DNA of 64,000 bases from a bacterium. GTDB lineage: Bacteria; UBP6; UBA1177; JAGLDR01. The position numbers and the translations under genes were made by a program. Location of the stretch: positions 5,488-69,487 of the forward strand of contig JAGLDR010000076.1 in NCBI GenBank assembly GCA_023145475.1, read 5' to 3'. Shown one piece after another: positions 1,833 to 62,329 of this stretch (its first letter is position 1; every line of letters begins with the position of its first letter). The notes beneath the pieces are model-generated. The model saw nothing but the letters and a program-made list of their open reading frames with translations, was not told the origin of the DNA and searched no databases.

Positions 1833-3497
1833 TTAATCAGAAAAGAGCCAACTATTGACATCATTATAAAATCTCAAAGGCTCTGTAACAGGCACGCTGT
1901 GACAGCTCGCGCCATAGTAAGGAAACGTAACTTCTCTCGTGATTTCGCCAAGAGTTTCGTCACTATATTGCACTTCAAAACGAGCGGCACTAAGAGAGAC
2001 TTTGGAAACTTGTGTATACTCTTTGAGCACCTCAGGAATTGCCGGTGAATAGATAACCGTATCCTCTTCAGCATTGGTAATAAAGCTCTTTACAAAAGCG
2101 AGATTTTCAAGGAACCGATCTCCAAATCGGTTATCATACGGAGACGCTTTCACTTGATAGAAGAGCTGCGTGATTTGACGATTCAAATCAATAAAATAGC
2201 TATCCCACTCCGGCAAAGTGCCTAGTGTTGATTCTAAATCACCTATCACGAGTGGATGGAGCTCTCTATATGCCTCCTTATATTGCAAGACAAATTCAAC
2301 CGATTTGGGAAGAGATTGTAATGAAAGTGGCAATAAAACTCCCTCATTCCCCGCAAAACGAAATGCTACATCTTTCCTCTCTTTTGCTGACAAAAAGGGG
2401 ATATCTGTATGATTCGCCCCAATAAGTGTTGAGAAAAGAGTACCATCAGTTAGTGTCGCTATCCCCACATCTGTATGGTCAAACAGCCAATTTGACTCTC
2501 GTTTATAGCAATAGACATCATACCCATTATCTCCAATGAAGTTCATAACTTGACGATGGTCATAGCAATCTTCAGCTCCATCGCACCCTTGAAAAACCTC
2601 ACCTGTTTCTGCTTCGACCCACGCAACTGCTGAAGTTGGAGAATTCGCCATCATTCTGCCTGAAGTATCCATCTGTGCGTAACCGGTCAAAAGCGGCTGA
2701 ATCAAAATCTGATGTGAAAATTGTCTTGCAGCAACTTTCGCTGAAATCTCACCACTTACTTCAGGAAAAATCTTTTTAAAATGGGTGTCAATCTCACTAA
2801 AAAGCTCACTATCTTTGTAGATATCTCCACCGCTATATTTATCTGAATTGTAGTAAAGCAACAGATTGAGTATTGCGGTTGCGCGTATCCCGCCGTAACT
2901 TTCACCAACGAGAACTATTTGGTTATTTTCGAGCTCTGGCATTGTCTGCAAAAGACGCAAAATCGTGCGAATAAAATCAGCTGCGTCAACATAGGCATTA
3001 AAATTATCAGGCCGATAATAATCTGAACGCTCTTTTTCACTGGTTGGATTTGAGACCATACCATACGAAAACCCCGTCTGACGAGCGTCAATATGAATGG
3101 TTGAACCCATCTCTGTAAAACTCGTTGGATTCTTTGCAATGGCTGCAGGTGCTGCAATGGTTTGATCAGCTGTGTAGGGCGCGGTGTTATAGGTAAACAG
3201 AAGAGCGGTTGCAGCTCCTGGTCCACCATTAAAAAAGACAAAAATCGGTTTACTCTCTGGCTCACTCTCAGCAGGATGAAATGAGTACCAGATGCGTGCT
3301 TTATCTGATTCCATACTGTTTTCATCTAAAATATAGGAGTGAGATGCAATCTCAATAAAGCCAGCTTTAGCAACAATAGAAAGAGATGAATCATTGTCAT
3401 CATCTGAAGTTTCATCACCTAAGTGCGACACTGGCGAAGAACACGAAAGAAGAAAAAAAGCTATAAAAAACCCTAAAACTCGGAAAATCTTTTTCAT
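1833..3497 (-). CDS. peptidase S10 (serine carboxypeptidase)-like lipoprotein
   Basis: FVFFNGGPGAATAL and LVGESYGGIRA resemble the S10 signatures NGGPGCSS and GESYAG. The preferred start is the internal ATG at 3497 (GAGGG RBS, then MKKIFRVLGFFIAFFLLSCSS lipoprotein signal). The six-frame ORF start at 3581 would overlap truB. Confidence 0.6.
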   Translation of the reverse strand: MKKIFRVLGFFIAFFLLSCSSPVSHLGDETSDDDNDSSLSIVAKAGFIEIASHSYILDENSMESDKARIWYSFHPAESEPESKPIFVFFNGGPGAATALLFTYNTAPYTADQTIAAPAAIAKNPTSFTEMGSTIHIDARQTGFSYGMVSNPTSEKERSDYYRPDNFNAYVDAADFIRTILRLLQTMPELENNQIVLVGESYGGIRATAILNLLLYYNSDKYSGGDIYKDSELFSEIDTHFKKIFPEVSGEISAKVAARQFSHQILIQPLLTGYAQMDTSGRMMANSPTSAVAWVEAETGEVFQGCDGAEDCYDHRQVMNFIGDNGYDVYCYKRESNWLFDHTDVGIATLTDGTLFSTLIGANHTDIPFLSAKERKDVAFRFAGNEGVLLPLSLQSLPKSVEFVLQYKEAYRELHPLVIGDLESTLGTLPEWDSYFIDLNRQITQLFYQVKASPYDNRFGDRFLENLAFVKSFITNAEEDTVIYSPAIPEVLKEYTQVSKVSLSAARFEVQYSDETLGEITREVTFPYYGASCHSVPVTEPLRFYNDVNSWLFSD

Positions 3498-18339: not shown

Positions 18340-21300
18340 GTGATGAAAAATGTTCTAAGGTCTTTAAAATTAAAAGGAGTAGTTGCTGTAATATTCCTTA
18401 TTTTTGCAACACTTCATGCAACGGAAAGCTCAAACTATTATTCTGTGAGAGCTTACAACGCTTCGCCTGAAGCTGTTCAATTTCTTCAATCAAATATGGA
18501 AAAGATCTATTACGACCGTTATGGAATGCCGACTTATATAGTTAAGCTGGAAAATTTAAGTGTCCTGTCTCAGTATTCTGGGATAGAAGTTAACTTCGGT
18601 GTAACATCTTCTGAATACAACAGCATTGATCTTAATGAAACTGTTCCTTCTAAGTATAGTTGGGATTTTGGTAATACTGTTGACACTTCCCGTTCGGGAT
18701 GGAAAACTAAAGATTCCACTGGAAATGATTGGCCTGAACATGACTGGCCATCATATCCTGCGATGACAGTTGAATTGTTAAACAATGTTAATGATTATGT
18801 TACACAACAGTTGCCCGTAGAAGATATTGAACGGGTAGTTAGATCCAATATCGCCTCTGCACTTTATTTCATAGAATACAATATTGCCGCAGAATCTGTA
18901 TATAACAGCCGATGGGATCGTGAGGATTTCAACCCATCACTTGTAGACATTGATGCTGATAATGATCATTGTGTCGATTATTTTCCCAATGACTGTCTGT
19001 CTGCCAAGAATAAAGATAGTGATAACGATGGTGTAGTTGACGAACTAGATAACTGCCCCAATACTAAAAATCCGGGACAGACGGATTTTGATAAAGACGG
19101 GACAGGTGATTTGTGTGATCCATGTCCGAGACGATTCGGTTCAGCGACGGGTCTAGATAGTGACGGAGATGGAATAGATGATGGCTGTGATAACTGTCCA
19201 CTTCATTACAACAAACTTGAACCGATAAATCCTTTTAGTGAAATTATTTCTGCACCCATAAGTAAGTTTTTCAAAATAACTGATGAAAATAATGAACCCT
19301 TAAATAAAGGGCTGGAGCTTTATTATGAGGGCGGGGCTTTTTATTCAGGTGGTTATATTTATTATGCTTTTAGTGATATTAAAGAAGAGGATCTTGGTTA
19401 TTTTTTTACAGAAGAAGAGATTGAGTTCTACAATTCGAATCCCAATATTTTTGGTGATAAGTTCCTTTTATCCACTCCAATTTATCCTTTCAATGGAGTT
19501 CCTGTCACTTATTCTACAGAAATTGACCTGTTTAATGGAAGATCAGCTCTCTTCTTTTCGTTTAATTATCTCTGGCAACCTGACCATGATCTTGATGGCA
19601 TAGGTGATGTCTGTGATATGCCGGGCGAAGTTGTGAGAGAGAGGATTCCAACAATAGATGATGCTGGAAAACTCGTTCTTGATTCCGATGATAAAGCTCT
19701 GTTTGTTCCTCAAATAGGAGATGGATTTGCATACAATAAGATAAAAACAGTCAAAAACCTCACAACTCGAAAGGCATATTTGCCATGGATTGGGGGATAC
19801 GACGATACGGCGGTTAAAATAGAACTTCAAATGCCGCTTTACAGCAAGGATCCTCAAAGTTGCGTGACAAGATTCTCCTATCAAATTAATGATAATCTGA
19901 CACTTGATGACAATGTATGTCAGTCGGCAGTACATTTTTGTGCAGTGGATAAACGACTAAAACATCTCTGGGGAGAAGACGGTTACTGTTCGACATCAGA
20001 TAAAACAGAGCGATACAACGACAATTCAAATCTTGCAAAACCGCTTTTTCCGTTTGGCTTTAGCCACGGAAGTGATGATTTTTCAGAATCCTCAGTTTAT
20101 AGCTGGAGAATGCGAATATCATCCGCGAAAACAGGCAATTCTCTGAAAAATATGGGTTTTGAAACTGAATACTTATCAAATCCAAACAGTGATGTATACA
20201 GATCCATCCAACAGACTTCTACAACAGGAGAGAGTGTTTATTGGAATTGGAGACGAGATTGGTGGTATTGGAATGAATGTTACAGACCTGATAAAACAGA
20301 CGATCCCAGATGTCTGGCACTAAAAACTCCTCCAGAGCTGAGGGATAGTGAAAATACCATGTATTATGCGATTTCAACAAATATTGTTCCTGTGACAAAA
20401 GCTCAAGCATCTGCAGGAGATGTTCCCTCCTATAACAACGAAGCTACATCAATCAATAACAACTACTTTTTCAACAGCAAGGAAGACCGATTTTCCGGTT
20501 CTGATTTTTGGAAAAAAGATGCGTCAAAATACGGAAGAGCACACCGCTACAGTATGAATAAGATGGAGCTTAATTATCACGGAAAAGTATACTCAACACC
20601 CGACCCTGAAATAGATCCACCGATTGACCTTTCCAAGTTCCAAATGGAACTCTGCATTGATTGTTGGTGGAGAATACCTCTTACAATATTGGATGATGAG
20701 ATGATGAAATATCAACTTGGACGCTGGTCTCTTGAAAAAAGAATTGATAATGTATTGCACTTTTTTGCTGAACCTCTTTCCATTCCTGAAAACGCCATGC
20801 TTTTTATGAGCGCACCTGATAGTGGAGAACTCTTTTCTGTTGTCCAACATTCGGGACAAAATGAAGCTACAAGCTATACTTTAGAGATGAGTCCAAAAGA
20901 TGGTGGGATTGATTGGCAGATTATGGGAGCACTTGCATCATTTCCTGAATCTCTTAAAATCACTGCTGTTACTCCTCATCGCGGGCGTATTTATATCCTT
21001 GGACACACTCCTGATGCCTCAGAAGAAACTCTTTTTGCCATTACTCCTGAAACAATTCCCCCTGAAGGCATCACTCTTCCCAACTCTCAAGACAGACCTC
21101 AATTTGTTGTTAGCAATGTGAGTGTAACAGGAATAAGTGAGGACTCATTCGACGAAATACAAATAATATCTTCAGGAGAGAAGTTGTTCTTGGTTGGCTC
21201 TGATGCAACAGGAGGTGAAACAAAAACTTTTAAATTAAACACCGAAACGACACTGTTTGAAGAGGTAGCAGGTCAATCTCCTGCCTATCGTAAAATATAT

Positions 21301-22692
21301 AATCTCAAGAAAAGTTCTGGATATATTTTTCTTATTGGAGGGATGAATACTAACAACGATGCACTAAACGACATGTGGCGATTCAACACTGAAACAGAAA
21401 TATGGGAGCAACTGCTTCTTACACTTCAGGGGGATTTCAGAAAGGTAATTATTCAAGAGGTTGAAGGGAAATTGATTGCCGCAAACCCCATTATGGATGG
21501 CAACACAACACATCCTGCATTTACATTTGACCCAACGATTCAGAATATCAACAATATTGTTATTGAGTATGTTGAAATTCCTGTCACAGAAACAAAGTAT
21601 ATGTCGGATGAAAACTACTGTTTCTTGCAGAGAGATAGCTCTCTTTTTGGTGGTTTACTGTTTGGAAACAGCTGTATTCCATTCACTACAAGAAATCACG
21701 CATTTTATCAGATGAATGGTCTGGTCAACGATGTTGCAGGATATAACAACTATCTCTATACCTCACTTGACAACGCTGTAACCGTTCTTGATATTTCAAA
21801 CCCATCAAACATAGCAGAAGTATTGTCAATTCCGACTGATTTTGTGGTGCATGATATTGATATCAAAAACGATACCGCTTTTGTTACCGTAAATAACGGT
21901 ATTGCTTCGTATGATATTTCCGATGTGAACAACATTGTTTTGCAAGACTTCCTTATCACCTATAATACCGCAAACTTTGTCTATAGTTCAACCGGTCCAG
22001 TCACCGACAGCTACGGGAACCCCGTTCTTTCATCTGGAGAGCTTGGAGACACTACCGAATTAGTAATTGAAGGTAATTTGCTCTACGCAGCAGATGGACA
22101 CGGCATCACCGTGGTTAATATCTCAGATCCATCAAACTTGACGGTTGTCAACAATGTTTATACATCGGGAAACACCGAAACACTCGCCCTCACTGATGAT
22201 AAAATCTATGCGTATGATCGCTACAGTCTCAAGATTTATGATAAAGCAACACTCAATCAAGTCTACGCAGACTATCTTGATGAAGATGACTTTGGCTTTA
22301 CCGAAGATGAGCCGTGTGAAAACGCTCACTTCACTTCATACAACGGTGTTGTATACGCAGACTGTTTCCTCTCTTCATCAGTCTACACTATCGAACAAAA
22401 CTCTTATCTGTACGAGTTCCATCCGATGAGTGGTGACAGCGTTGAACTTGGTGACACATACATATCCGGTCAGTATGGCTATTTTGCCGATGGAACAGGA
22501 GTCAGAGTCAGTTATTTTGATCCGACGGCGCCTGTTTGTGGTGATGGCGTTGTTGAAGGCGATGAAGTGTGCGACAATAACATCGTTGCCTGTACAACAC
22601 TCAGCGGTGACTACATCGGCGGTGATGCCCCTTGTAATTCGACCTGCAACGGATACAATGAAAGTGGCTGTGAAGATGATGATGGATGGTAG
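18340..22692 (+). CDS. giant secreted mosaic protein: TSP type-3 Ca-binding repeats + LVIVD beta-propeller repeats + C-terminal Myxococcus-type Cys-rich repeat
   Basis: 1450 aa with a signal peptide. TSP3 repeats at about nt 19000-19200 ([38 protein letters not shown]). LVIVD-like repeats at about nt 21730-22250 ([31 protein letters not shown]). The C-terminal [15 protein letters not shown]...C resembles the myxobacterial cysteine-rich repeat. Confidence 0.7.
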   Translation: [1450 protein letters not shown]

Positions 22693-22873: not shown

Positions 22874-24400
22874 ATGTTGATACGCCCTTACGGATTACTG
22901 TTTATCTTATTTCTTGTTATCTCTTGCACCACCACATCCACAAAAACAGATGCAGATGTTGTTGCAGACAGAGATATAGTTGTTGATGCTGATCTTGATT
23001 TCTCTGATTTTGATCGTGATTTACTTGATGAAGACAATGTGTCTGACTTTGATTCGATTGATGAAAAGCCAGATGCCGATTCAATCACTTGTCTTGATTT
23101 GAGATTCAACGAAAACACCATTAAGACAGCATTCCCATTTGAGGATAAGAACGGAAAAATCACTTTTTGTCGCCCTGGGTGTGATACCCCAACAGAGACT
23201 GACCCTCAGTGTGTCCGCAATATCTGGGAGTGGGACAACTGGAGTGAATATCAAGTCTATCTCGAAGCTCAAAAAAAAGATCCCAATCAAAAGTGGGAGA
23301 GAGAATGTTATCCATGGCCGTGTAAGTTGCCAGATATGAAAGCATATACCAATCCGTCCTACTATCACAAATGTGATAGATCGCTTGCCGTGCATGGATT
23401 TGATGCAAATATGGGGATAATATGGAGTCACGGCATGAGTGACGGAGTTGCAGGAATGGGTATGACTCACAGTTTACGAACTATTGAATACGATCCTGAA
23501 AAAGATGAATATATGACTTTGGGGCAAATGGACACTCTCTCTTTTAATGAGAATAGATATGTTTTACGAGTCTATGACAGAGATCCAGAGTTTCCTAGAT
23601 CGTTTATTGTTTCAATTTTAAGAAAAAACGGAAAATATTATTATGAGTTAATTTACGACAATAAAAATCACAATTCATGGTTATCTCGCCCTTCATTTGC
23701 TGGTAGAAAATGGGTTTTAATTCAAGTAAGGGAGGGGAAACAAAGTAGTGTTACTGAATTCAAATACGCCTCTTCAGAAGATTGGGAATGGCACAATCTT
23801 GAGGGAATAAACAACTATACGGGGGAAGGGAACATAGTTGGAGACCATTTGACATTTATCACCAACAACCGAGAAATATACTATTGCGATTTAAGAAAAT
23901 ATCCGAAACATATTAATGAATGTACACTCATTAACAGAAAAATGGAAACAGATGACTATGAATTAGGACACAGTCCTAGAATAGATCTAGAAAACGAAAA
24001 AAGATTGGTTTACAATGTGTATCGACAGAATATCTTTGTGGAAGTTGACTTAACTGACATTGATAATCCAATATACAAGAGATATGAAGTGCCAAAAAAT
24101 AAAGACGGAGATTATGCGTGGGAAATTGAGTCATTGAAAGGAGATAAACTAGTTTACGCCAGTTATTATAGCATCGAAGGAGGAGTAAATACTCTCGGTT
24201 GTTTCTACCGTTTTGACAAAGAAAAAATCTACTGCCCAGAAGAGGAAACAAGTGGAATTGACATGGGTTTCAATGTTTTTTGGGGCAAATGGCATCTTTG
24301 GAAAAACATAGGTACCCCAACTGCTATGATGCGAGACTGGGAGTGTTATTGTGAGGAGACGGGGATTTGTCCGTTGGCAAAACAAAAGGGCTTGAAATGA
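22874..24400 (+). CDS. lipoprotein with acidic linker, paralogous module family A (larger paralog)
   Basis: Start at 22874 gives MLIRPYGLLFILFLVISCTTTS (lipobox) followed by an acidic linker. The module KTAFPFEDKNGKITFCRPGCDTPTETDPQCVRNIWEWDNW...ECYPWPC is near-identical to that in the 17320 gene. Confidence 0.55.
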   Translation: MLIRPYGLLFILFLVISCTTTSTKTDADVVADRDIVVDADLDFSDFDRDLLDEDNVSDFDSIDEKPDADSITCLDLRFNENTIKTAFPFEDKNGKITFCRPGCDTPTETDPQCVRNIWEWDNWSEYQVYLEAQKKDPNQKWERECYPWPCKLPDMKAYTNPSYYHKCDRSLAVHGFDANMGIIWSHGMSDGVAGMGMTHSLRTIEYDPEKDEYMTLGQMDTLSFNENRYVLRVYDRDPEFPRSFIVSILRKNGKYYYELIYDNKNHNSWLSRPSFAGRKWVLIQVREGKQSSVTEFKYASSEDWEWHNLEGINNYTGEGNIVGDHLTFITNNREIYYCDLRKYPKHINECTLINRKMETDDYELGHSPRIDLENEKRLVYNVYRQNIFVEVDLTDIDNPIYKRYEVPKNKDGDYAWEIESLKGDKLVYASYYSIEGGVNTLGCFYRFDKEKIYCPEEETSGIDMGFNVFWGKWHLWKNIGTPTAMMRDWECYCEETGICPLAKQKGLK

Positions 24401-39180: not shown

Positions 39181-40488
<1,308 letters not shown>

Positions 40489-40572: not shown

Positions 40573-40600
40573 TTGAATTTCCTGAGAATAGATATAAAAT
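40573..40600 (+). promoter_or_regulatory. candidate sigma70 promoter (TTGAAT-16-TAAAAT) for the C25 peptidase gene
   Basis: -35 at 40573-40578 and -10 at 40595-40600. The AAGAGGGAG RBS and ATG at 40636 follow. Confidence 0.3.
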
Positions 40601-40635
40601 GGAATGAAAATATTCTCAACAAGAGGGAGTTCTCT

Positions 40636-42381
40636 ATGTCTACACGATTTCTAACACTTTTGATGGCGCTTTTTTTGGCAAGTGGATGTGGAGAAACAGC
40701 CCACTCAAATGAGCAAGATGATTCTGACACTTTTTTATCTGATGCTGCTGTCGATGACAACGCTTTTGATGACTCTCAGGACGCTGCTCTCTCTGATGAA
40801 GATGCCGCAATTGACGACAGAGATTCAGCCACCGAGCAAGATAACGAAACAAGTGATGAGGATACACCTCCTCTAACATCTTTAGAGCCAGAAGAAATTT
40901 CTGAATACAATGCTCTTATTATTACAACAGAGTTGTTAAAACCATCGTTCACAAAACTTGCAGCACTCCACACAATGGTCGGCATTCCAACGAAGGTCGT
41001 TACCATTTCAGAGATATGCGGTTCATCGTGTGATGACACCGACACAAAAAATGACACTGCAAAAAAGGTTAAAGAGTATCTCATAGCAACACCTGCGCTT
41101 CGCTTTGTTGTTCTTGGTGGTGATATTGATGATGTGCCATCACGCAGAGTGCATGATACCTACAGCAACACTTTTGCGGGCTCATTTACCTCTGATTTTT
41201 ATACTGACTACTACTTTAGCGATTTTTCTGAGTGGGATACAAACGGTGATGGCGTTTACGCAGAAGATGGCTCCGACTCTCCAGATTTCAAGCCAAAAGT
41301 TGGCGTTTCAAGAATCCCTGTCTCAACAGTTGATGAGGCAGACTCCTATATTCAAAAAGTGGAATCTTATATCACACACTATGATCCAGATGCAATGAAT
41401 CGTGTCGGCTTGACAGCAAACATTGCAACAAACTACAACGGCATTGTCATCAATGCAGGATACTATTTTGAATCCCCAGATCGCACTGTTTCACTGATTC
41501 CTCCACACTTCACCAAAGAAAAGCTATACGCTGCAACTGTTCCGCAGGCTGCTGCTGATGCGGAAAAAATCTCTATTGATTCACAAATAGCAATGTTTAC
41601 AAATGGAACAAACATTATTATTCACAATGGGCATGGCTCGCCTGCACTGCTTACCTGTGAGCAAACGGGGGATGACCTCGATTTCACCGGAGATATGGCG
41701 GCAGAACTTACTAACACAGTATTCCCCATCTTTCTTTCATGCGCCTGTCAAGCAGGGCAATTTGAGGCACCATTCACCTATCACTATACCAGTGGAGGTG
41801 TTGAAAAAGAGCGAGTTTATACAGAGGATTCACCAGGAGAACGCCTTGTTACAGCACCTGCCGGCGGTGGTATTGCCTATCTCGGAAATACGACAACGGG
41901 GCTTGGTCTTGCTGGTGGAAGCCAACTTATTGATGAGATGCTTCGCTATATATTTACTGTTCCAAATCCTATCTTAGGTGACGCACTCATTGCTGGACAC
42001 CAATATCTTAAAGAGAATGATACCTTTCAACCACCTTTAATTGCGCTTCCAATCCCTGTTGTTGACCCTGATAGCTACAGGTGGACACAAAAATCTGTTG
42101 TTCTCCTTGGAGATTTGCTCATTCCTGTCTATACAACGCCTCTGTTGCAGCAGTTAGATTCATTTGTTTTTGATGCAAAAGCCAGCGATGGAGGAATAGC
42201 AATCACACTTCCTCAAACTGAGTGCACAATTTCGATTTTTGATACACAGAAGTATTACACTGTTGACAAGTGCTCCGAAACAAGCTGTTCATACCATATT
42301 ACAACGCCTTCAAAAAAACTTTTTTCTGTCAGAAAGTGTGAAGGATATCAACCAAAAACCTTTAGTATTACAGTGGATTAA
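40636..42381 (+). CDS. peptidase C25 (gingipain-like) family cysteine peptidase lipoprotein with acidic linker
   Basis: MSTRFLTLLMALFLASGCGE lipobox, then a D/S-rich linker. YNALIITTELLKPSFTKLAALHTMVGIPTKVVTISEI...FVVLGGDIDDVPS matches the C25 N-terminal domain. The catalytic dyad candidates are HNGHGSP (His) and FLSCACQAGQF (Cys). Confidence 0.65.
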   Translation: MSTRFLTLLMALFLASGCGETAHSNEQDDSDTFLSDAAVDDNAFDDSQDAALSDEDAAIDDRDSATEQDNETSDEDTPPLTSLEPEEISEYNALIITTELLKPSFTKLAALHTMVGIPTKVVTISEICGSSCDDTDTKNDTAKKVKEYLIATPALRFVVLGGDIDDVPSRRVHDTYSNTFAGSFTSDFYTDYYFSDFSEWDTNGDGVYAEDGSDSPDFKPKVGVSRIPVSTVDEADSYIQKVESYITHYDPDAMNRVGLTANIATNYNGIVINAGYYFESPDRTVSLIPPHFTKEKLYAATVPQAAADAEKISIDSQIAMFTNGTNIIIHNGHGSPALLTCEQTGDDLDFTGDMAAELTNTVFPIFLSCACQAGQFEAPFTYHYTSGGVEKERVYTEDSPGERLVTAPAGGGIAYLGNTTTGLGLAGGSQLIDEMLRYIFTVPNPILGDALIAGHQYLKENDTFQPPLIALPIPVVDPDSYRWTQKSVVLLGDLLIPVYTTPLLQQLDSFVFDAKASDGGIAITLPQTECTISIFDTQKYYTVDKCSETSCSYHITTPSKKLFSVRKCEGYQPKTFSITVD

Positions 42382-42520
42382 AACCCATCACTCTTTTTTT
42401 ATTCCTTTTTTCTCTGCATTATTGTTGAAACAATTATTTTTATGAGTACACTATCTTCCGTTACATAGTGTCGTGGTGGAACTATTGTATTTTGACGTCA
42501 ATCGTAAGATGGAGGCATTG

Positions 42521-43303
42521 ATGAAAAAGATTTTATTACTTTTGGTTGTGTTTGGAATGTTTGTTATTGTTGGTTGTGGATCAGACAATCCTATTATGGG
42601 AGCGACAGATCAAACCACATCTGATGCAGATATTGCAGATACTGGTAGCGACACCGATGTAGCAGACACGAGTGATAGTGCTGACACGAGTGACACCGCA
42701 GATACTGGTGACACTGGTGATACTGGCGACACAAGTGATACTGGCGACACCAATGTTGGCAAACACTGTGAAAAAGATCCAGATTGTGGCACAGGACTTA
42801 TTTGTGTTAATCAAAAATGTGCAATGGGTTGTAAAACTGATGATGAGTGTAAAACCTATGGCTCTCTTCGTTGTAACAAAAAACTTGGTCGTTGTTTGAA
42901 CTTAGCTGCTTCTAGCCAAGCTTGTTCTGAAAGCAAATGTCCAAAAGGTTGTTGTTACTCTAACGACGGTTTTACTGAGCTTAAATGTGCTGCAACATTC
43001 AGTGTTGGAACATGTGGCATGTGTCCTCAAGGTCAAGTTTTCCGTGGTGGAAACGAGTGTGTCCCTGCTGTCTGTTCGGCTACCAATGACAAGTGCCCAA
43101 CATACAATGCATCCGAACCTAAGAAAGAGTGTTTCGAATGTAAAGCTGGTGCTCTTATCTGTTACGAGAATCCAACTTGTGGAACAGGATCAGGAAGTGG
43201 TATTGTTGTGAATGCACTGAGCTGTACACCAGCTGGTCAAGTCTGTAATGCAGACAGCGACTGCTGTAGTGGACAACCTTGTATTGAAGGATACTGCTAC
43301 TAA
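42521..43303 (+). CDS. small lipoprotein: DT(G/S) tandem-repeat linker + Cys-rich (about 30 Cys) C-terminal domain
   Basis: GGAGG RBS; MKKILLLLVVFGMFVIVGCGSD lipobox; a (DTG/DTS) repeat linker; then an ~180-aa domain with many paired Cys residues (CEKDPDCGTGLICVNQKCAMGCKTDDECK...). Confidence 0.55.
   Translation: MKKILLLLVVFGMFVIVGCGSDNPIMGATDQTTSDADIADTGSDTDVADTSDSADTSDTADTGDTGDTGDTSDTGDTNVGKHCEKDPDCGTGLICVNQKCAMGCKTDDECKTYGSLRCNKKLGRCLNLAASSQACSESKCPKGCCYSNDGFTELKCAATFSVGTCGMCPQGQVFRGGNECVPAVCSATNDKCPTYNASEPKKECFECKAGALICYENPTCGTGSGSGIVVNALSCTPAGQVCNADSDCCSGQPCIEGYCY
42634..42752 (+). repeat. in-frame 9-nt tandem repeats (GAYACYGGY/GAYAGYGCY) encoding (DTG/DTS/DSA)n
   Basis: The most regular core is 42701-42751: gatactggt gacactggt gatactggc gacacaagt gatactggc gacacc. 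Confidence 0.7.
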
Positions 43304-53058: not shown

Positions 53059-53077
53059 ACCAAGAAGGAGAATGTTA

Positions 53078-54820
53078 ATGAAACTCTTGAAGATATCAAT
53101 GGTATTTATCTTGCTGTTAGCTGCAATGCTTTTTTCAGCATGCAGTGACGGGAATACTGGTGACCTGAAAATCAACTTAAAACTCCCTATGTCTCTTGGT
53201 CGAGGATGTGATACCTTGACTGAAGGTGGCGATGTTTTAGAAGATTATACTTATGACCAATGTTTTGTCCCTGAAGATAAAATAACTATCTCTGTCTACA
53301 GAAAGGCTTTTCCTTCTGATGACTATCTTTATGTACAGCAAGAAGTTATTACAGTGACTGACAAAAGTATGTGGGGCGGAAAATTTCCCTATATTCGTAC
53401 ATTGACAACGGGTAGCTACTATAAGTTTTTTGTAGTTGTTACTAACAAAAACCAGAAAATCAAGATGGCTGGTGGCGTAGAAGGCGTTGTATATGATTCG
53501 GCGAAAAACAAAAGCATCTCTATCTTCCTCAGTAATGTTGCAGATTTTGCACGAGTTACAACAGATGGAAAAGATGAAGGCTCAATTTCAACATATGTTG
53601 AAAGTCTTGGCTCAAAAGGCGTTGGCGCTGCTGCTCTTCAAGATGGTCGTGTTTTTATGACTGGTGGATACAGTGTTGATACTGATACTGTTCTTCAGAA
53701 CACAATACTCTTCAACCCATCATCTCTCTCTAAGAATGGCTCTAAGTCTCTTCCTACTCCGCTGTGGGATCACTCAATGGCAACACTGCGTGATGGCTCA
53801 GAGAGTGGAAAAGTTATAATTGCATTTGGTAAGACATCTGCGGCCAACTACTCTAGCAGTGTCTACTCTTACGATCCTGAAGCTGATAAATACATCTCCA
53901 TTAATAATATCGCAGGACGCACAGGAACAAGATCTTTGCAGAGTGCCGATGGCTCTGTCTATATCTTTGGTGGCTGTGATGCAGCAAAAGCATTTGGCGA
54001 TGTTTTAAAAGTTGATGCAAAAACAGGCAAGGTTGGTGTATTCACAAAAATGAACACTGCTCGTTGTTACCACTCTGTTGCAGATTTGAGTTATGAAGAT
54101 GACAATGGTTTTCACCCTCGTTTTCTCATAGTAGGTGGTCTAACCAAAGATGCATCGATTGCTATTGGTGACTATGTTACTGGCGAAGCATTTGCAGAAC
54201 TGCTGACAGACGCGGGCTCGACTCCAATCAAGCTTGTCCCTGCCTCAGAGTTTGATGTACCAAAAAGATTGGCATATCAAGCATCAGCTGGCATTACATG
54301 GGTAACTGCAGCAACAGAGACAACAGCTGAGACAAGAGCATTTGCAGCATCTGTCGTTGGTGGTGTTCTCTTTGCAGAAGATAAAAACTCGACGACAACA
54401 TCTCAGAGTCTCTACTCAATTTATAAAGTTGGTAAAGATTGGATGATTAACAGAAATACATCTCCTCTCTCATGTGCATTCCCAACAATGGCGCAGATTC
54501 CATCTATTTATGAGACAAAATTGGCAGCTGTCAATTGTGGACCTGCTCTTGATTCAGGACAAGCTGCAACTGAGTTGCCAAACAGAAACTCATCTGGACT
54601 TCCTCAAATGTTTGTACTTCAACTTAACAGAACAAATTATAATGGAAAAGTTGTTGTTTCAGCGGCGGCTCGTATCTCTATCAATGGTGCTGATTTCGTT
54701 GATCAACCAAACTCTCTATACACCTATATTGATGGACCAACTGTTGTTAACAGCACTGGCCAAGCTTACCTTCTTGGAAGTCACTATATTTACAAAGCAA
54801 GTGGTTACACTGCTAACTAA
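53078..54820 (+). CDS. Kelch-repeat lipoprotein
   Basis: AAGGAG RBS; MKLLKISMVFILLLAAMLFSACSDG lipobox; Kelch-like repeats (DGRVFMTGGYS; DGSVYIFGG; RFLIVGGL). Confidence 0.55.
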   Translation: MKLLKISMVFILLLAAMLFSACSDGNTGDLKINLKLPMSLGRGCDTLTEGGDVLEDYTYDQCFVPEDKITISVYRKAFPSDDYLYVQQEVITVTDKSMWGGKFPYIRTLTTGSYYKFFVVVTNKNQKIKMAGGVEGVVYDSAKNKSISIFLSNVADFARVTTDGKDEGSISTYVESLGSKGVGAAALQDGRVFMTGGYSVDTDTVLQNTILFNPSSLSKNGSKSLPTPLWDHSMATLRDGSESGKVIIAFGKTSAANYSSSVYSYDPEADKYISINNIAGRTGTRSLQSADGSVYIFGGCDAAKAFGDVLKVDAKTGKVGVFTKMNTARCYHSVADLSYEDDNGFHPRFLIVGGLTKDASIAIGDYVTGEAFAELLTDAGSTPIKLVPASEFDVPKRLAYQASAGITWVTAATETTAETRAFAASVVGGVLFAEDKNSTTTSQSLYSIYKVGKDWMINRNTSPLSCAFPTMAQIPSIYETKLAAVNCGPALDSGQAATELPNRNSSGLPQMFVLQLNRTNYNGKVVVSAAARISINGADFVDQPNSLYTYIDGPTVVNSTGQAYLLGSHYIYKASGYTAN

Positions 54821-58659: not shown

Positions 58660-60168
58660 TTATCGTCCTGTTCCCGGTGTTTGAGTCGCTGCGTACCAGG
58701 TGAAGTTGTCAAGTAGGACCATAGAGTCAAGAACATGATCACCACTGTCCCAGGTAACTAATCTCAATTCAAATTCTTCGCCACCAACAACATTTCCTCT
58801 TGTAACAAGCCATCCGGTTGCGCCGTGTCCTTCAAATCCTGTTCCTTGCAATTCTGCACCACCAAGACAGGCTGCGGTGATATCAGGCTTGAGCCAAGAT
58901 TTTTCACAAACGGTAAAAAGACCGTTTTTTGCAAGATTCACGCCAACAGGATTCTTCATTGCATCCATTGCGAGGTTTTTATCTGCTGGGTTTTGGAGGA
59001 GTGGATCTGCACTCGTAAAAGATGAATCAATAAGGGAGAGAAAGAAATCATTGTATGTAGAACAGACATAATCAGGAAACTCAATGGAGAGAAAATAGAT
59101 TTGGAAACTAAATGATTCCGCATTTAGAGGCGCTCGTATTTTCAGTTTTAACATAACAGAATCATTCGCTGGATCATTACTTTCTGTACCAAATCCACAT
59201 GATGGAGATGTTGGATATTTGTTTCCATTTGCGCTGTACCAATCAGCAGGTGAAGCGGAGGCTGTATCATTTCCAAGTTCAGCCTCGGTGTCTTTAAATG
59301 GATTAACGGTAACACCACTTGAAATGGCTGCCATACTGGCACCATTATGAGGCCTGATAAGTGTGCCAAGTCCGGTGAATGTTGAGTATGAAACAGGTGC
59401 GAGTGATTTGCCGTCATTATCGATTGCGGTGCCGTTTGCAAAAAGTAGTTCAGCACTCACGATGCCAAACCCATTTTCGCCTGCGGGACACAAATCCATT
59501 GATTGTCCAAGATTCATTGCGGCATCTAGATGCGGTGTTCCATTGTCACATGTTGCTGCGACTTCATCTATTTCACCGTTACAGTTATCATCAACATTGT
59601 TTCCCTCAATTTCAAATGAGCGAGGATTAACCAGTTCCGGATGGATACATTGACTTCCAAGCTCACAGCAGTCTCCCTCACAATAGGTAAAACCATCACC
59701 ATCAAAATCAATGGCATTTCCAGGGGTTTGATCAATTCCATCGCAATCTTGATCCTCTCCATCAGAACAGATTTCAGCTTGTGGGAGAACTTCATTTTTA
59801 CAGGCTCCCCATCCACTGCCATCATCAATGCAGGTCATTGTTCCTGCTTGACACGCCCCGACACCCTGTGTGTTACTTGGACCGGAGTAGCACTCTAATG
59901 TATTACCAGGAGTACACTCCATACCAATCGTTGCGTCTTTATCCGGAGCTGAATCACCAGCAGATTGATCTGACACAGTATTGCCACTATCATCGCTACT
60001 ATCGCTCGTGTCACCGTTATCATCTGCTTGAGAGCCACTATCACCATTGTCGCTTGTTATATAATAATCACTGTCTCCGACATTGTCTGCTTCAAGGGAC
60101 TCTTCTCCACACGAAAACAGCAAAAACAGCATACTAATTAAGATAACTATAAGAAAGAACCTTCTCAT
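58660..60168 (-). CDS. Cys-rich acidic lipoprotein (502 aa), hypothetical
   Basis: MRRFFLIVILISMLFLLFSCGEE lipobox, then a D/S/G-rich linker, then a Cys-rich region (CDGIDQTPGNAIDFDGDGFTYCEGDCC) and a large globular domain. Confidence 0.5.
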   Translation of the reverse strand: MRRFFLIVILISMLFLLFSCGEESLEADNVGDSDYYITSDNGDSGSQADDNGDTSDSSDDSGNTVSDQSAGDSAPDKDATIGMECTPGNTLECYSGPSNTQGVGACQAGTMTCIDDGSGWGACKNEVLPQAEICSDGEDQDCDGIDQTPGNAIDFDGDGFTYCEGDCCELGSQCIHPELVNPRSFEIEGNNVDDNCNGEIDEVAATCDNGTPHLDAAMNLGQSMDLCPAGENGFGIVSAELLFANGTAIDNDGKSLAPVSYSTFTGLGTLIRPHNGASMAAISSGVTVNPFKDTEAELGNDTASASPADWYSANGNKYPTSPSCGFGTESNDPANDSVMLKLKIRAPLNAESFSFQIYFLSIEFPDYVCSTYNDFFLSLIDSSFTSADPLLQNPADKNLAMDAMKNPVGVNLAKNGLFTVCEKSWLKPDITAACLGGAELQGTGFEGHGATGWLVTRGNVVGGEEFELRLVTWDSGDHVLDSMVLLDNFTWYAATQTPGTGR

Positions 60169-60232: not shown

Positions 60233-62329
60233 TTAACTTCCGCCAGTCCCAACTTTTTTACCAGGAACGATAATCAACACTTCGCGCGTACTGAGAACAG
60301 TACCTTGACCACGAACATTTATCTGAGCTCTAAAAAGTGTTGCCTCTGTCGTTTCAGGCTCATAGATGTTGTTTTGGAATGTAACATCAAAAAGAACCGT
60401 TGTGCCAGGTGTAACACCGTAAAATGTTGTAGTGTCTTTTGAGGTGTAGGCCTCAATAGGCTCAGTCGAATTTGGAATAACCGCATTGATAAATTGAGTG
60501 GTATCAACTCCGTGAAGATTGTCAATTGACTCTGTAACAGTATTTACATCCATCAAAATATTGTGAACTAAATCACTAACTGCATCAACAACCTGTGTAG
60601 AAAGTCCCGTTCCATTTGCGGCGATAGTATAATAGTAATAGGAGCCATCAGCTCTTTTGGAGTCTGTTCCTTCAGAGACAGCATTGTAATCGGCTGTTGG
60701 ATCAGTCTGGTCTGAGATTGACTTGATTCCGATGAATTTAGCATTAATAGCATTCATTGCTGCAATCGCCTGTGCTCTTGTATGACCGGGAGTTGACCCT
60801 GATGCCCATCGAACACCACTTTCGCCTTGAAAGCCGTATCCAGCAAATGCCTCATCAGTAATCATAATATATATTGGGAGTGAGTCTTGTCTAAAACATG
60901 CTCCACCAATTGTGTCTCCTGAACAAGTAGCTGCCGGAATAGAAGGACTTACCAATGTTTTCCAATCACAACTTCCCCACTCATCACAATCTTCGTACTC
61001 AATTCTTGAGTTAAATCCTTCACCTGTTGCTGATTGATAGAGTGCCTCTTCGTGAGGTTCATATCGGCCACCCTTCAAAGAGAGTGCATTAACTGCAGCG
61101 GTTACAACGGCAGCATCTGTTGTTATTGGCGTCAAAGCATAAGGAGCGTCTTGCCATGTTCCAAATCCAACAAGGCCAAAGGCTGCACTTGGAATTTCAC
61201 TGTTAATTCCTGAAATAATAGTGTTGTTTATACCACTTTTAAGATTTCCAAGCTCTCCATCCATTGTGCCAGAAAGATCGACAAGAATAAGAATATCTGC
61301 AAATTGAATATCGGTGGTAAAATCAAGCGGCTTATCGGTCTCTGGCTCTTCGTATGGCAAGACAACATAAAAAACATCTGCCGGAATACCAAGAGCTGGA
61401 TCAAGCACATATTCAGCACCAGTATGATCTGGATCGATCTGCTCACCGTATGCATTCTCAACATTATCATCAAAACCATCACCATCAGTATCAGACTCTT
61501 TTGCATTACTGCCAATCGATGCTTCGTAAGAGTCCGTCAAACCATCATTATCAGAGTCAAAATCGAGAAAATCAGGAATTTTATCATCATCACTGTCAAT
61601 AGGAGGCTCTGATCCACCACTCTCCTCACTATCAAGCATTGTATCGCCATCAGAATCGGTATCTAAAAAATTCGGCAGACCATCTTTATCAGTATCTTTC
61701 AATCCTTCATATAAATCAGAGATTCCATCGCCATCAGAGTCACTATCCATATAATCAGCAACGCCATCGCCATCAGAATCAACAGGTGATTCAGGATCAC
61801 TCCCCGCCTCTATACCATCAGAGATGTTGTCATTATCTGAATCGGTATCTCGGTAGTTGACTGCACCATCGCCATCGGTATCTTCAACACCTTCAACAGA
61901 ATCGGGAATACCATCACCGTCACTATCACTGTCTTGATAGTCAGGAGTTCCATCTTCATCAGTGTCAACAGGGACACCATTGGGTGCTTCAACACCATTT
62001 TTTATCCCATCGCCATCTTCATCAGCTTCGGGATCAATCTCAGAAACGGTATCACTCGTATCAGCAGAATCAGCAGAATCAGCAGAATCGGCACTATTGC
62101 CGCTATCGGATGTATCAGCTGTGTCCGAGCTATCTGCGGTATCGGTTGTGTCTCCGATATCCAGAGTATCGCCTGAATCACCACTATCTGAACTGTCAGC
62201 ACTATCGCCTGTATTTGCAGTGTCAGCGGTGTTGCCACTATCAGCGGTATTACCAACTGCCTTTCCCTCTTCGCCACACGAAACAAAAAGAAGCATCGTG
62301 GCCACAATAGTAAATAAAATAGTTCTCAT
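60233..62329 (-). CDS. lipoprotein with acidic low-complexity linker + TSP type-3 Ca-binding repeats + von Willebrand factor A domain
   Basis: MRTILFTIVATMLLFVSCGEEG lipobox; an (ADS/ADT)n linker; repeated DxDxDGxxDxxD motifs (DTDEDGTPDYQDSDSDGDGIPD...); a vWA domain with MIDAS ILVDLSGTMD; ends VPGKKVGTGGS. Confidence 0.65.
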   Translation of the reverse strand: MRTILFTIVATMLLFVSCGEEGKAVGNTADSGNTADTANTGDSADSSDSGDSGDTLDIGDTTDTADSSDTADTSDSGNSADSADSADSADTSDTVSEIDPEADEDGDGIKNGVEAPNGVPVDTDEDGTPDYQDSDSDGDGIPDSVEGVEDTDGDGAVNYRDTDSDNDNISDGIEAGSDPESPVDSDGDGVADYMDSDSDGDGISDLYEGLKDTDKDGLPNFLDTDSDGDTMLDSEESGGSEPPIDSDDDKIPDFLDFDSDNDGLTDSYEASIGSNAKESDTDGDGFDDNVENAYGEQIDPDHTGAEYVLDPALGIPADVFYVVLPYEEPETDKPLDFTTDIQFADILILVDLSGTMDGELGNLKSGINNTIISGINSEIPSAAFGLVGFGTWQDAPYALTPITTDAAVVTAAVNALSLKGGRYEPHEEALYQSATGEGFNSRIEYEDCDEWGSCDWKTLVSPSIPAATCSGDTIGGACFRQDSLPIYIMITDEAFAGYGFQGESGVRWASGSTPGHTRAQAIAAMNAINAKFIGIKSISDQTDPTADYNAVSEGTDSKRADGSYYYYTIAANGTGLSTQVVDAVSDLVHNILMDVNTVTESIDNLHGVDTTQFINAVIPNSTEPIEAYTSKDTTTFYGVTPGTTVLFDVTFQNNIYEPETTEATLFRAQINVRGQGTVLSTREVLIIVPGKKVGTGGS
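62061..62096. repeat. (TCAGCAGAA)x3 + degenerate 4th unit within a ~230-bp simple-sequence tract (62037-62270)
   Basis: tcagcagaa tcagcagaa tcagcagaa tcggcacta. On the minus strand it encodes the (ADS)n acidic linker of the vWA lipoprotein. Confidence 0.7.

Follow-up and report, generated by a model that had tools for sequence, protein, structure and literature searches.

Here, we describe two neighbouring lipoprotein genes on a 64,000-nt stretch of DNA (contig JAGLDR010000076.1 of assembly GCA_023145475.1, positions 5,488 to 69,487; hereafter the window) from a bacterium that probably belongs to the candidate phylum UBP6. The first gene codes for a gingipain-family (C25) cysteine peptidase and the second for a cysteine-rich protein that is predicted to end in an inhibitor cystine knot (ICK). 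An earlier note, based on a reading of the sequence, had suggested that they form a protease/inhibitor or protease/cargo pair. Our analysis makes it probable that the two genes encode separately promoted envelope lipoproteins, which are neighbours by local synteny and not a functional pair. If the pairing is incidental, as is probable, recognizing this spares the second gene a misleading 'protease/inhibitor' annotation.

Both genes are real. They lie on the + strand, and the likely start codons are ATG 40636 for the C25 gene (40636..42381, 581 aa) and ATG 42521 for the Cys-rich gene (42521..43303, 260 aa). As described earlier, they are separated by 139 nt and the enolase gene (39181-40470, - strand) is located divergently upstream of the C25 gene. 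Position 40573, from which the earlier note had counted, marks the -35 hexamer plus an upstream TTG and not the C25 start codon; a Shine-Dalgarno-like AGAGGGAG (40622..40629, + strand) can be read directly off the sequence 6 nt ahead of ATG 40636. A public assembly from the same sample matches the window exactly across the locus and has the same two genes called, including the 260-aa gene, and the C25 protein is identical to the public protein P0026, whose entry is titled 'hypothetical protein [bacterium]'. The proposed lipoprotein status of both proteins is also confirmed by lipobox-like signals (LASGC and IVGC), the cysteine of which is conserved in both families: the C25 signal peptide (…FLASG-C18; 40636..40689, + strand) keeps Cys18 in at least 90% of 24 homologues, and in the signal peptide of the Cys-rich protein (…FVIVG-C19; 42521..42577, + strand) Cys19 is invariant in 21 sequences. 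Genes for lgt and lspA occur in a related genome (L001). Scans of the whole window for tRNAs and, at gathering thresholds, for Rfam families gave nothing relevant, and the base composition has no anomaly of the kind expected from recent transfer.

The C25 and Cys-rich genes are adjacent only in the window and in the related loci L069/L070, L071 and L009, the C25 proteins of which share 63-69% identity with that of the window. Among 57 loci carrying the Cys-rich family in species-representative genomes (one per species), none has a C25 gene adjacent to the Cys-rich gene, and in just two is a C25 gene found within 10 kb, at distances of 6 and 9 kb and on the opposite strand. In GCA_050949545.1, a single 2.07-Mb contig carries both genes, at a distance of more than 200 kb from each other. 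The window Cys-rich gene is a positional orthologue located beside a glycerate kinase (MOFRL)-priA-DksA block, which is conserved in about a dozen species-level genomes, and the upstream neighbour of this orthologue varies between an aminotransferase, a lamin-tail-domain protein and flagellins. These comparisons of gene order argue that the adjacency is a local synteny confined to the window's subclade. Together with the promoter and leader that the Cys-rich gene appears to possess, they leave the proposed protease/inhibitor or protease/cargo pair unsupported.

Two further observations were made on the gene neighbourhoods. In a UBP6-like genome, three tandem, unusually large flagellin genes (886-904 aa) lie upstream of the Cys-rich orthologue (L005 1-7597). 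In GCA_050949545.1, the C25 orthologue follows the triose-phosphate isomerase gene by 8 nt on the same strand (L007 6252-8758); glycolytic neighbours of C25 thus recur, with enolase in the window and triose-phosphate isomerase in L007, which is possibly a coincidence.

The C25 gene is preceded by a sigma-70-like promoter (TTGAAT-16-TAAAAT; 40573..40600, + strand). The match alone is at chance density, as a pattern scan found 7 sites against 6.4 expected; however, L069 and L071 have the same two hexamers at the same 16-nt spacing, though their upstream genes differ. The earlier claim that the C25 gene has its own promoter is hence supported by the conservation of the sequence in two relatives. 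A second sigma-70-like promoter (TTGAAA-16-TACACT; 42425..42452, + strand) precedes the Cys-rich gene and is conserved in L069, L071 and L009, the latter with the variants TTGCAA and TACAAT. Upstream of the Cys-rich family members, a -35/-10 pattern was found in 29 of 60 cases, compared to 4.0 ± 1.9 in shuffled sequences. The promoter is followed by a conserved leader or 5'-untranslated region (42453..42520, + strand), which contains GGAGG at 42510-42514. The 96 nt from 42425 to 42520 are 87-88% identical to L069 and L071, whereas identity is 68% for the C25 coding sequence and 44-48% for the 5' half of the spacer. Because each gene has its own conserved promoter-like elements, the sequence supports two separate transcription units and not an obligate operon.

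No other DNA of the locus is as well conserved as the leader of the Cys-rich gene, the coding DNA of the relatives being 68-82% identical. No Rfam match was obtained for the leader and spacer, even in a permissive scan of the spacer, and an RNA folding z-score of 0.1 revealed no structured element and no clear intrinsic terminator in the spacer. Of 60 family members, 11 (versus 1.6 expected) have a TGG-N8-TTG(A/T) motif at a distance of 41-67 nt upstream of the start codon, for a motif that was defined after viewing the data and a set in which many sequences are related. This motif may represent a regulator site or else a -24/-12 element of atypical form. A reading of the leader as sigma-54-like was rejected, since the strict TGGCA-N6-TTGC is absent from all 60 sequences.

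The first protein is a bona fide peptidase of family C25, clan CD. Pfam Peptidase_C25 (PF01364) covers residues 94-493 (40915..42114, + strand) with an E-value of 8.7e-43 and 147.4 bits against a cut-off of 23, the match spanning profile positions 2-369 of 374. In an alignment of 24 homologues, residues H330, G332, H333, G334, S368, A370 and C371 are invariant. When a profile of the family was compared with PDB sequences, GHG aligned with residues 210-212 and AC with residues 243-244 of RgpB, so that H333 (codon 41632..41634, + strand; HNG-H-G) is placed opposite the catalytic His211 and C371 (codon 41746..41748, + strand; SCA-C-QAG) opposite Cys244; the active-site region of PorU aligns likewise. 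For both proteins, profiles and not single sequences were needed to reach relatives in the PDB, and single-sequence searches of PDB sequences with either protein returned nothing useful. The AlphaFold2 model of the C25 protein (pLDDT 85) consists of an alpha/beta catalytic domain and a C-terminal beta domain, and its top Foldseek matches are mature RgpB (4ief, 1cvr) and Kgp (4rbm, 6i9a) with E-values of 5e-19 to 2e-18, the matched chains comprising the catalytic plus IgSF domains. The C25 membership and the His/Cys dyad (HNGHGSP, SCACQAGQF), which had been proposed from the sequence, are thus borne out by the Pfam match, the alignment with RgpB and the fold, and the enzyme looks active. More than 130 C25 homologues were found, nearly all of them about 540-600 aa long and mostly from metagenome genomes labelled 'bacterium'; NCBI already annotates homologues of the window protein as C25.

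Between the lipidation site and the catalytic domain, the protein contains an acidic tether that is predicted to be disordered (approximately residues 19-90; 40690..40905, + strand; pLDDT <50 for residues 16-76), with D and E making up 38% of the first 60 mature residues. The catalytic domain is followed by an all-beta, Ig-like domain (approximately residues 500-581; 42133..42378, + strand), which has seven strands in the model and is crossed by the Foldseek alignments to the IgSF-containing RgpB and Kgp chains. Similar to RgpB and Kgp from Porphyromonas gingivalis, the window protein therefore combines a two-subdomain catalytic fold with an Ig-like domain (target TM-score 0.61-0.68) and a His-Gly … Ala-Cys dyad that aligns with His211/Cys244. 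In contrast to these enzymes, with which it shares just 13-15% identity, it carries no haemagglutinin/adhesin domains and is anchored as a lipoprotein via the disordered acidic tether. Gingipains also possess an N-terminal prodomain of about 200 aa, whereas the AlphaFold2 model of the window protein has no folded domain, and thus no inhibitory prodomain, ahead of the catalytic domain. A C-terminal sorting domain for type IX secretion (T9SS) is likewise missing, as no match to Por_Secre_tail was obtained; Foldseek gave one weak, generic beta-sandwich match to a T9SS C-terminal domain (8gl6_D, E 0.045). The profile alignments do not reach the region around RgpB Asp163, the S1 specificity residue. 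The type IX sortase PorU shares the C25 catalytic core and the aligned active-site region, but the window protein is half the length of PorU, reaches it in Foldseek only with an E-value of 1e-4 and is found in no T9SS context. An identity as PorU was rejected, as the NCBIfam model T9SS_sortase scored 50.9 bits against a cut-off of 420.

UBP6 genomes have been described as amino-acid degraders in digesters (PMC7382037). We propose that the C25 enzyme, displayed by its lipid anchor and a disordered acidic tether of about 70 residues that would carry the gingipain-like catalytic domain and the C-terminal Ig-like domain, most likely performs extracytoplasmic proteolysis, either to supply an amino-acid-fermenting anaerobe with peptides or to process proteins of the envelope. 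With the C25 gene, the gingipain family gains a lipid-anchored architecture that lacks the prodomain, from a phylum of which no member has been cultured, and this architecture raises the question of how such an enzyme is controlled.

The Cys-rich domain of the second protein comprises residues 80-260. Its length (181 aa) agrees with the roughly 180 aa given previously, whereas the count of about 30 cysteines was imprecise and the CxxC/CxC spacing did not hold: the domain contains 28 cysteines, 24 of which are invariant across the family, with mostly Cx4-7C spacing, two CxxC (C165xxC168, C204xxC207), two CC and no CxC. Of 21 aligned sequences, 19 have an even number of cysteines in the mature protein; of the remaining two, one begins only shortly ahead of the lipobox. 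In addition, an extra cysteine at the end of the linker pairs with an extra cysteine in module 1, as both are present in 13 sequences and neither in 7; P0018 and P0019, which carry extra cysteine-rich inserts, break this rule. Because of the even cysteine counts and the paired gain and loss of cysteines, we favour disulfides over metal ligation, and 14 disulfides are predicted for the domain. An AlphaFold2 model of the domain (183 aa) reached a pLDDT of 89 from only 19 sequences.

The cysteines could instead ligate a metal, which would make the protein a metallothionein-, zinc-ribbon- or Fe-S-like periplasmic protein. The number of cysteines and the two CxxC motifs would fit this idea, the organism is probably an anaerobe, in which disulfide formation is less favoured, and a MopE-type metal-binding motif is present in a lipoprotein encoded nearby in the window (58660-60168). 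Against it speak not only the cysteine counts and their paired gain and loss across homologues, but also the ICK framework described below, the compact beta-hairpin model of high confidence, the loss of one cysteine from each CxxC in some family member, and the presence of a thioredoxin-fold oxidoreductase gene next to orthologues. Hence, we regard metal binding as quite improbable.

This candidate oxidoreductase gene is found at eight distinct loci (L003 8916-10067, L005 8973-10400, L010, L012, L016, L017, L041 and L043), where the gene directly downstream of the positional orthologue, on the same strand, encodes a membrane protein with a CPHC thioredoxin fold. The proteins are 380-475 aa long and, where complete, 63-68% identical. 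Besides a signal peptide, they contain CPHC domains of the thioredoxin/glutaredoxin fold (one or two per protein) and a multi-pass membrane domain, which has conserved cysteines and by eye is DsbD/CcdA-like. It is possible that this protein is a dedicated disulfide oxidoreductase or isomerase. Folding of the Cys-rich protein would then probably rely on a periplasmic thiol-disulfide oxidoreductase such as the one encoded beside the orthologues in several relatives.

The Cys-rich family is tiny: when 1.84 billion representative proteins were searched exhaustively with an HMM, 36 matched, 26 of them below 1e-10. Among the species-representative genomes, three of those that carry the family are named 'bacterium UBP6_UBA…', and the other carriers derive from rumen, anaerobic-digester and sediment metagenomes; several genomes carry two or three Cys-rich loci. 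No Pfam or NCBIfam model reached its threshold for the window protein, NCBIfam giving only matches at the level of the signal peptide, and the protein thus defines an unannotated family without a model in either database. Remote HMM matches are multi-repeat proteins with Pfam DUF7107 or Dickkopf_N, which align only to the first approximately 45 residues of the domain. This part contains a pair of CxxDxDC…C hairpin modules (residues 83-125; 42767..42895, + strand), to which Dickkopf_N matches below its threshold in 8 of 19 members (22.3 bits against a cut-off of 25) and DUF7107 at best with an E-value of 0.1; weak matches to squash inhibitors, Dumpy and Dickkopf were also obtained. The two CxxDx[DE]C…C…C units resemble the Dickkopf N-terminal, DUF7107 and Dumpy DPY-type modules, but all scores stay under the gathering thresholds and there are just two units, fused to a family-specific core. 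This core is the central cysteine-rich region (residues 126-234; 42896..43222, + strand), for which no relatives are detectable outside the family; a profile of it gave nothing relevant among PDB sequences, and the pLDDT is above 90 except at residues 146-150 of the 183-aa domain model. Judged by its sequence, the protein is a lineage-restricted lipoprotein built of known types of small disulfide modules.

The tail of the protein is predicted to form an ICK-type knot. The C-terminal module C235-x6-C-x5-CC-x4-C-x4-C259-Y (43223..43300, + strand) fits the framework CX3-7CX3-6CX0-5CX1-4CX4-13C with C235-x6-C242-x5-C248-C249-x4-C254-x4-C259, and none of the six cysteines varies across the family. 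When a profile was built from the last 32 residues and compared with PDB sequences, 56 matches were obtained, almost all of which are knottins or other small disulfide-rich peptides. The matches include Xt3a (E 2.7e-7), DkTx (1.9e-6), the single DkTx knot 2naj (2.6e-4), ADO1 (2.1e-3) and psalmotoxin (3e-3) as well as omega-atracotoxin and plant and sponge knottins, with single-knot chains at 2.6e-4 to 4e-3; the cysteine-rich composition inflates these scores. The window protein matches no Pfam ICK family at threshold, while one family member matches Toxin_35 with an E-value of 0.0035 and the distant member P0163 reaches 21.6 bits against the Toxin_12 cut-off of 21. Foldseek returned local matches of the domain model to knottins, squash inhibitors included. 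The description 'cysteine-knot-like' given in the earlier note therefore holds for the C-terminal module, as judged by the framework and the tail profile.

The end of the knot is near-invariant (...CCSGxPCxxGYCY), with strong conservation of the loops PAGQ, CCSG, P and GYCY. The last 26 residues have the same framework as ICK peptides such as DkTx, psalmotoxin-1, hanatoxin and plant knottins, a likeness known here from framework and profile, and the glycines of the window knot align with those of the spider toxins. However, venom and plant knottins are free, secreted peptides of 30-40 aa, whereas the predicted window knot is the last module of a 240-aa membrane-tethered lipoprotein, and its loops are strongly conserved within the family. 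For bacterial knottins, sequences are listed in the KNOTTIN database with no experimental structure as of 2017 (PMC5753296). In the window protein, an ICK-type knot would close a larger envelope protein of a bacterium, one with 14 predicted disulfides, and this small, apparently well-folding domain would make a useful target for structural studies and a scaffold for protein engineering.

Tandem triplets of Cys-rich paralogues were observed in L015 (10001-12039), L018 (87-1991), L019 (10001-12369) and L030 (6675-8711). At least in L015, L018 and L030, the middle copy ends just past the central region and has no C-terminal knot; the knot therefore appears to be a separable module. L066 contains an apparently degraded copy (558-990), in which the ICK tail (…CIPSGRRCSEGTGECCSGMPCIDGYCY) closes an 89-aa ORF that is out of frame with the upstream signal-peptide ORF.

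Given this framework and the profile similarity to spider, cone-snail and plant knottins, one might speculate that the protein is a released toxin or antimicrobial effector, of which the linker would be a pro-region; cleavage, perhaps carried out by the C25 enzyme, would free the domain or the ICK tail to target competitors or host cells. The match of P0163 to Toxin_12 would agree with such a function, as would the multiple copies and tandem arrays, which are also seen in effector families. On the other hand, the domain is near neutral and not cationic (17 K/R and 18 D/E, counted from the sequence), its inter-cysteine loops are conserved and not diversified, the positional orthologue resides in a housekeeping block beside glycerate kinase and priA, no immunity-like or secretion genes are found nearby, and the lipid anchor argues for retention in the envelope. 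We consider a toxin function improbable.

Instead, we propose that a flexible, acidic DT(G/S) tether would hold a rigid, roughly 180-residue module, for which 14 disulfides are predicted and which is composed of two Dickkopf/DUF7107-like hairpin units, the family-specific core and the C-terminal ICK unit. This module may act as a protease-resistant binding module for a conserved endogenous partner and not as an arms-race toxin; a conserved endogenous partner is suggested because the knot loops are strongly conserved and genomes carry two or three paralogues.

Could this partner be the C25 peptidase? In that case, the lipoprotein with its knottin tail would stand in for the missing C25 prodomain, as a tethered latency factor or inhibitor. 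Such a role would be in line with the adjacency of the genes in four related lineages despite a variable upstream context, the absence of a prodomain from the enzyme and the high conservation of the knot loops, as expected for a conserved partner. The knottin fold also includes protease inhibitors, and the weak matches obtained by fold and by sequence comprise squash trypsin inhibitors. EETI-II and MCTI-A superpose locally on the domain model at 0.7-0.8 Å over 20-23 residues, and the window sequence matches CKxDSDC…C(I/V)C…C. Yet, this similarity is not significant (E 0.05 to 2.6) and covers only a four-cysteine hairpin, in which no reactive-site loop is identifiable. Furthermore, the genes are unlinked outside the subclade by all three measures given above, two to three Cys-rich paralogues per genome reside in other contexts, and the promoters are separate. 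No knottin is known to inhibit clan CD cysteine peptidases. We therefore judge an inhibitor pair unlikely and favour two envelope lipoproteins brought together by local synteny.

Several points weigh against this preferred interpretation. Four lineages have retained the C25 gene ahead of the Cys-rich gene, with C25 identity down to 63%, a spacer of 139-164 nt and differing upstream genes, and a functional link specific to the window's subclade is possible. As the prodomain is absent from the C25 enzyme, another control of its activity must exist. The 64-kb window lacks the thioredoxin-fold membrane gene, and the roles of both proteins are deduced here from sequence and models.

A more speculative idea, to which we give little weight, is that the Cys-rich family represents UBP6-specific, membrane-tethered bacterial knottins, in which the C-terminal knot with its invariant end aromatic plugs or regulates an envelope enzyme. 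In the window's subclade this enzyme could be the prodomain-less C25 peptidase and elsewhere, for example, a nearby S8 or S10 peptidase. If true, the protein would act in trans as a latency factor with a lipid anchor, built on a fold that is familiar mostly from the venoms of animals and the inhibitors of plants, and the importance of the family would rise considerably if the knot were a tethered regulator of an envelope protease. Two observations concern such peptidases. In a rumen-associated clade, a protein of 890 aa that is subtilisin-like by eye and bears its own C-terminal cysteine-rich repeats is encoded at L054 2903-5575, with a Cys-rich paralogue about 4.5 kb downstream; the same block, which also holds a 571-aa lipoprotein with an acidic linker and a repetitive, collagen-like protein of 419 aa, occurs at the same position in L031, L035, L036, L050, L053, L056, L057, L062 and L063. 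In the window itself, a lipoprotein with a Peptidase_S10 (serine carboxypeptidase) domain is encoded at 1833-3497 (- strand). The Peptidase_S10 family is mostly known from eukaryotes, and the lipoprotein is another candidate partner for a protein that ends in an invariant C-terminal aromatic residue.

The linker between the lipobox and the Cys-rich domain is encoded by repeats with a 9-nt period (42626..42755, + strand), which specify D-T-(G/S/A/D). These had been described as perfect 9-nt tandem repeats that could tune the linker length by slipped-strand mispairing. However, the repeats are degenerate: Tandem Repeats Finder reported matches of 66% for a period of 9 nt and of 83% for one of 18 nt, the copies share 60-81% identity with each other and no exact repeat is longer than about 10 nt. 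In addition, the protein length is steady at 257-260 aa in four lineages with Cys-rich proteins of 63-86% identity. Two other assemblies from the same sample are identical to the window where they cover it, the shorter one stopping before the repeats. A contingency locus in which the tract changes its copy number would be compatible with the 9-nt periodicity over about 130 nt and with the wide variation of linker length and sequence over the whole family, but the degenerate copies, the constant protein length, the agreement of the assemblies over the covered stretches and the occurrence of similar linkers in other window lipoproteins make it highly improbable, and the proposed tuning is left unsupported.

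Acidic tethers rich in D, S, T and G follow the lipobox in at least three other window lipoproteins, encoded at 22874-24400 (+ strand), 58660-60168 (- strand) and 60233-62329 (- strand), e.g. GNTADSGNTADTANTGDSADSSDSGDSGDT, as well as in the C25 protein, and this style of tether appears to be lineage-wide among lipoproteins. The lipoprotein encoded at 58660-60168 contains 18 cysteines in addition to its MopE-type motif. Two further genes of the window code for envelope or surface proteins, namely a 1450-aa protein with Kelch, LVIVD and TSP3 repeats (18340-22692, + strand) and a 582-aa Kelch beta-propeller lipoprotein (53072-54820, + strand).

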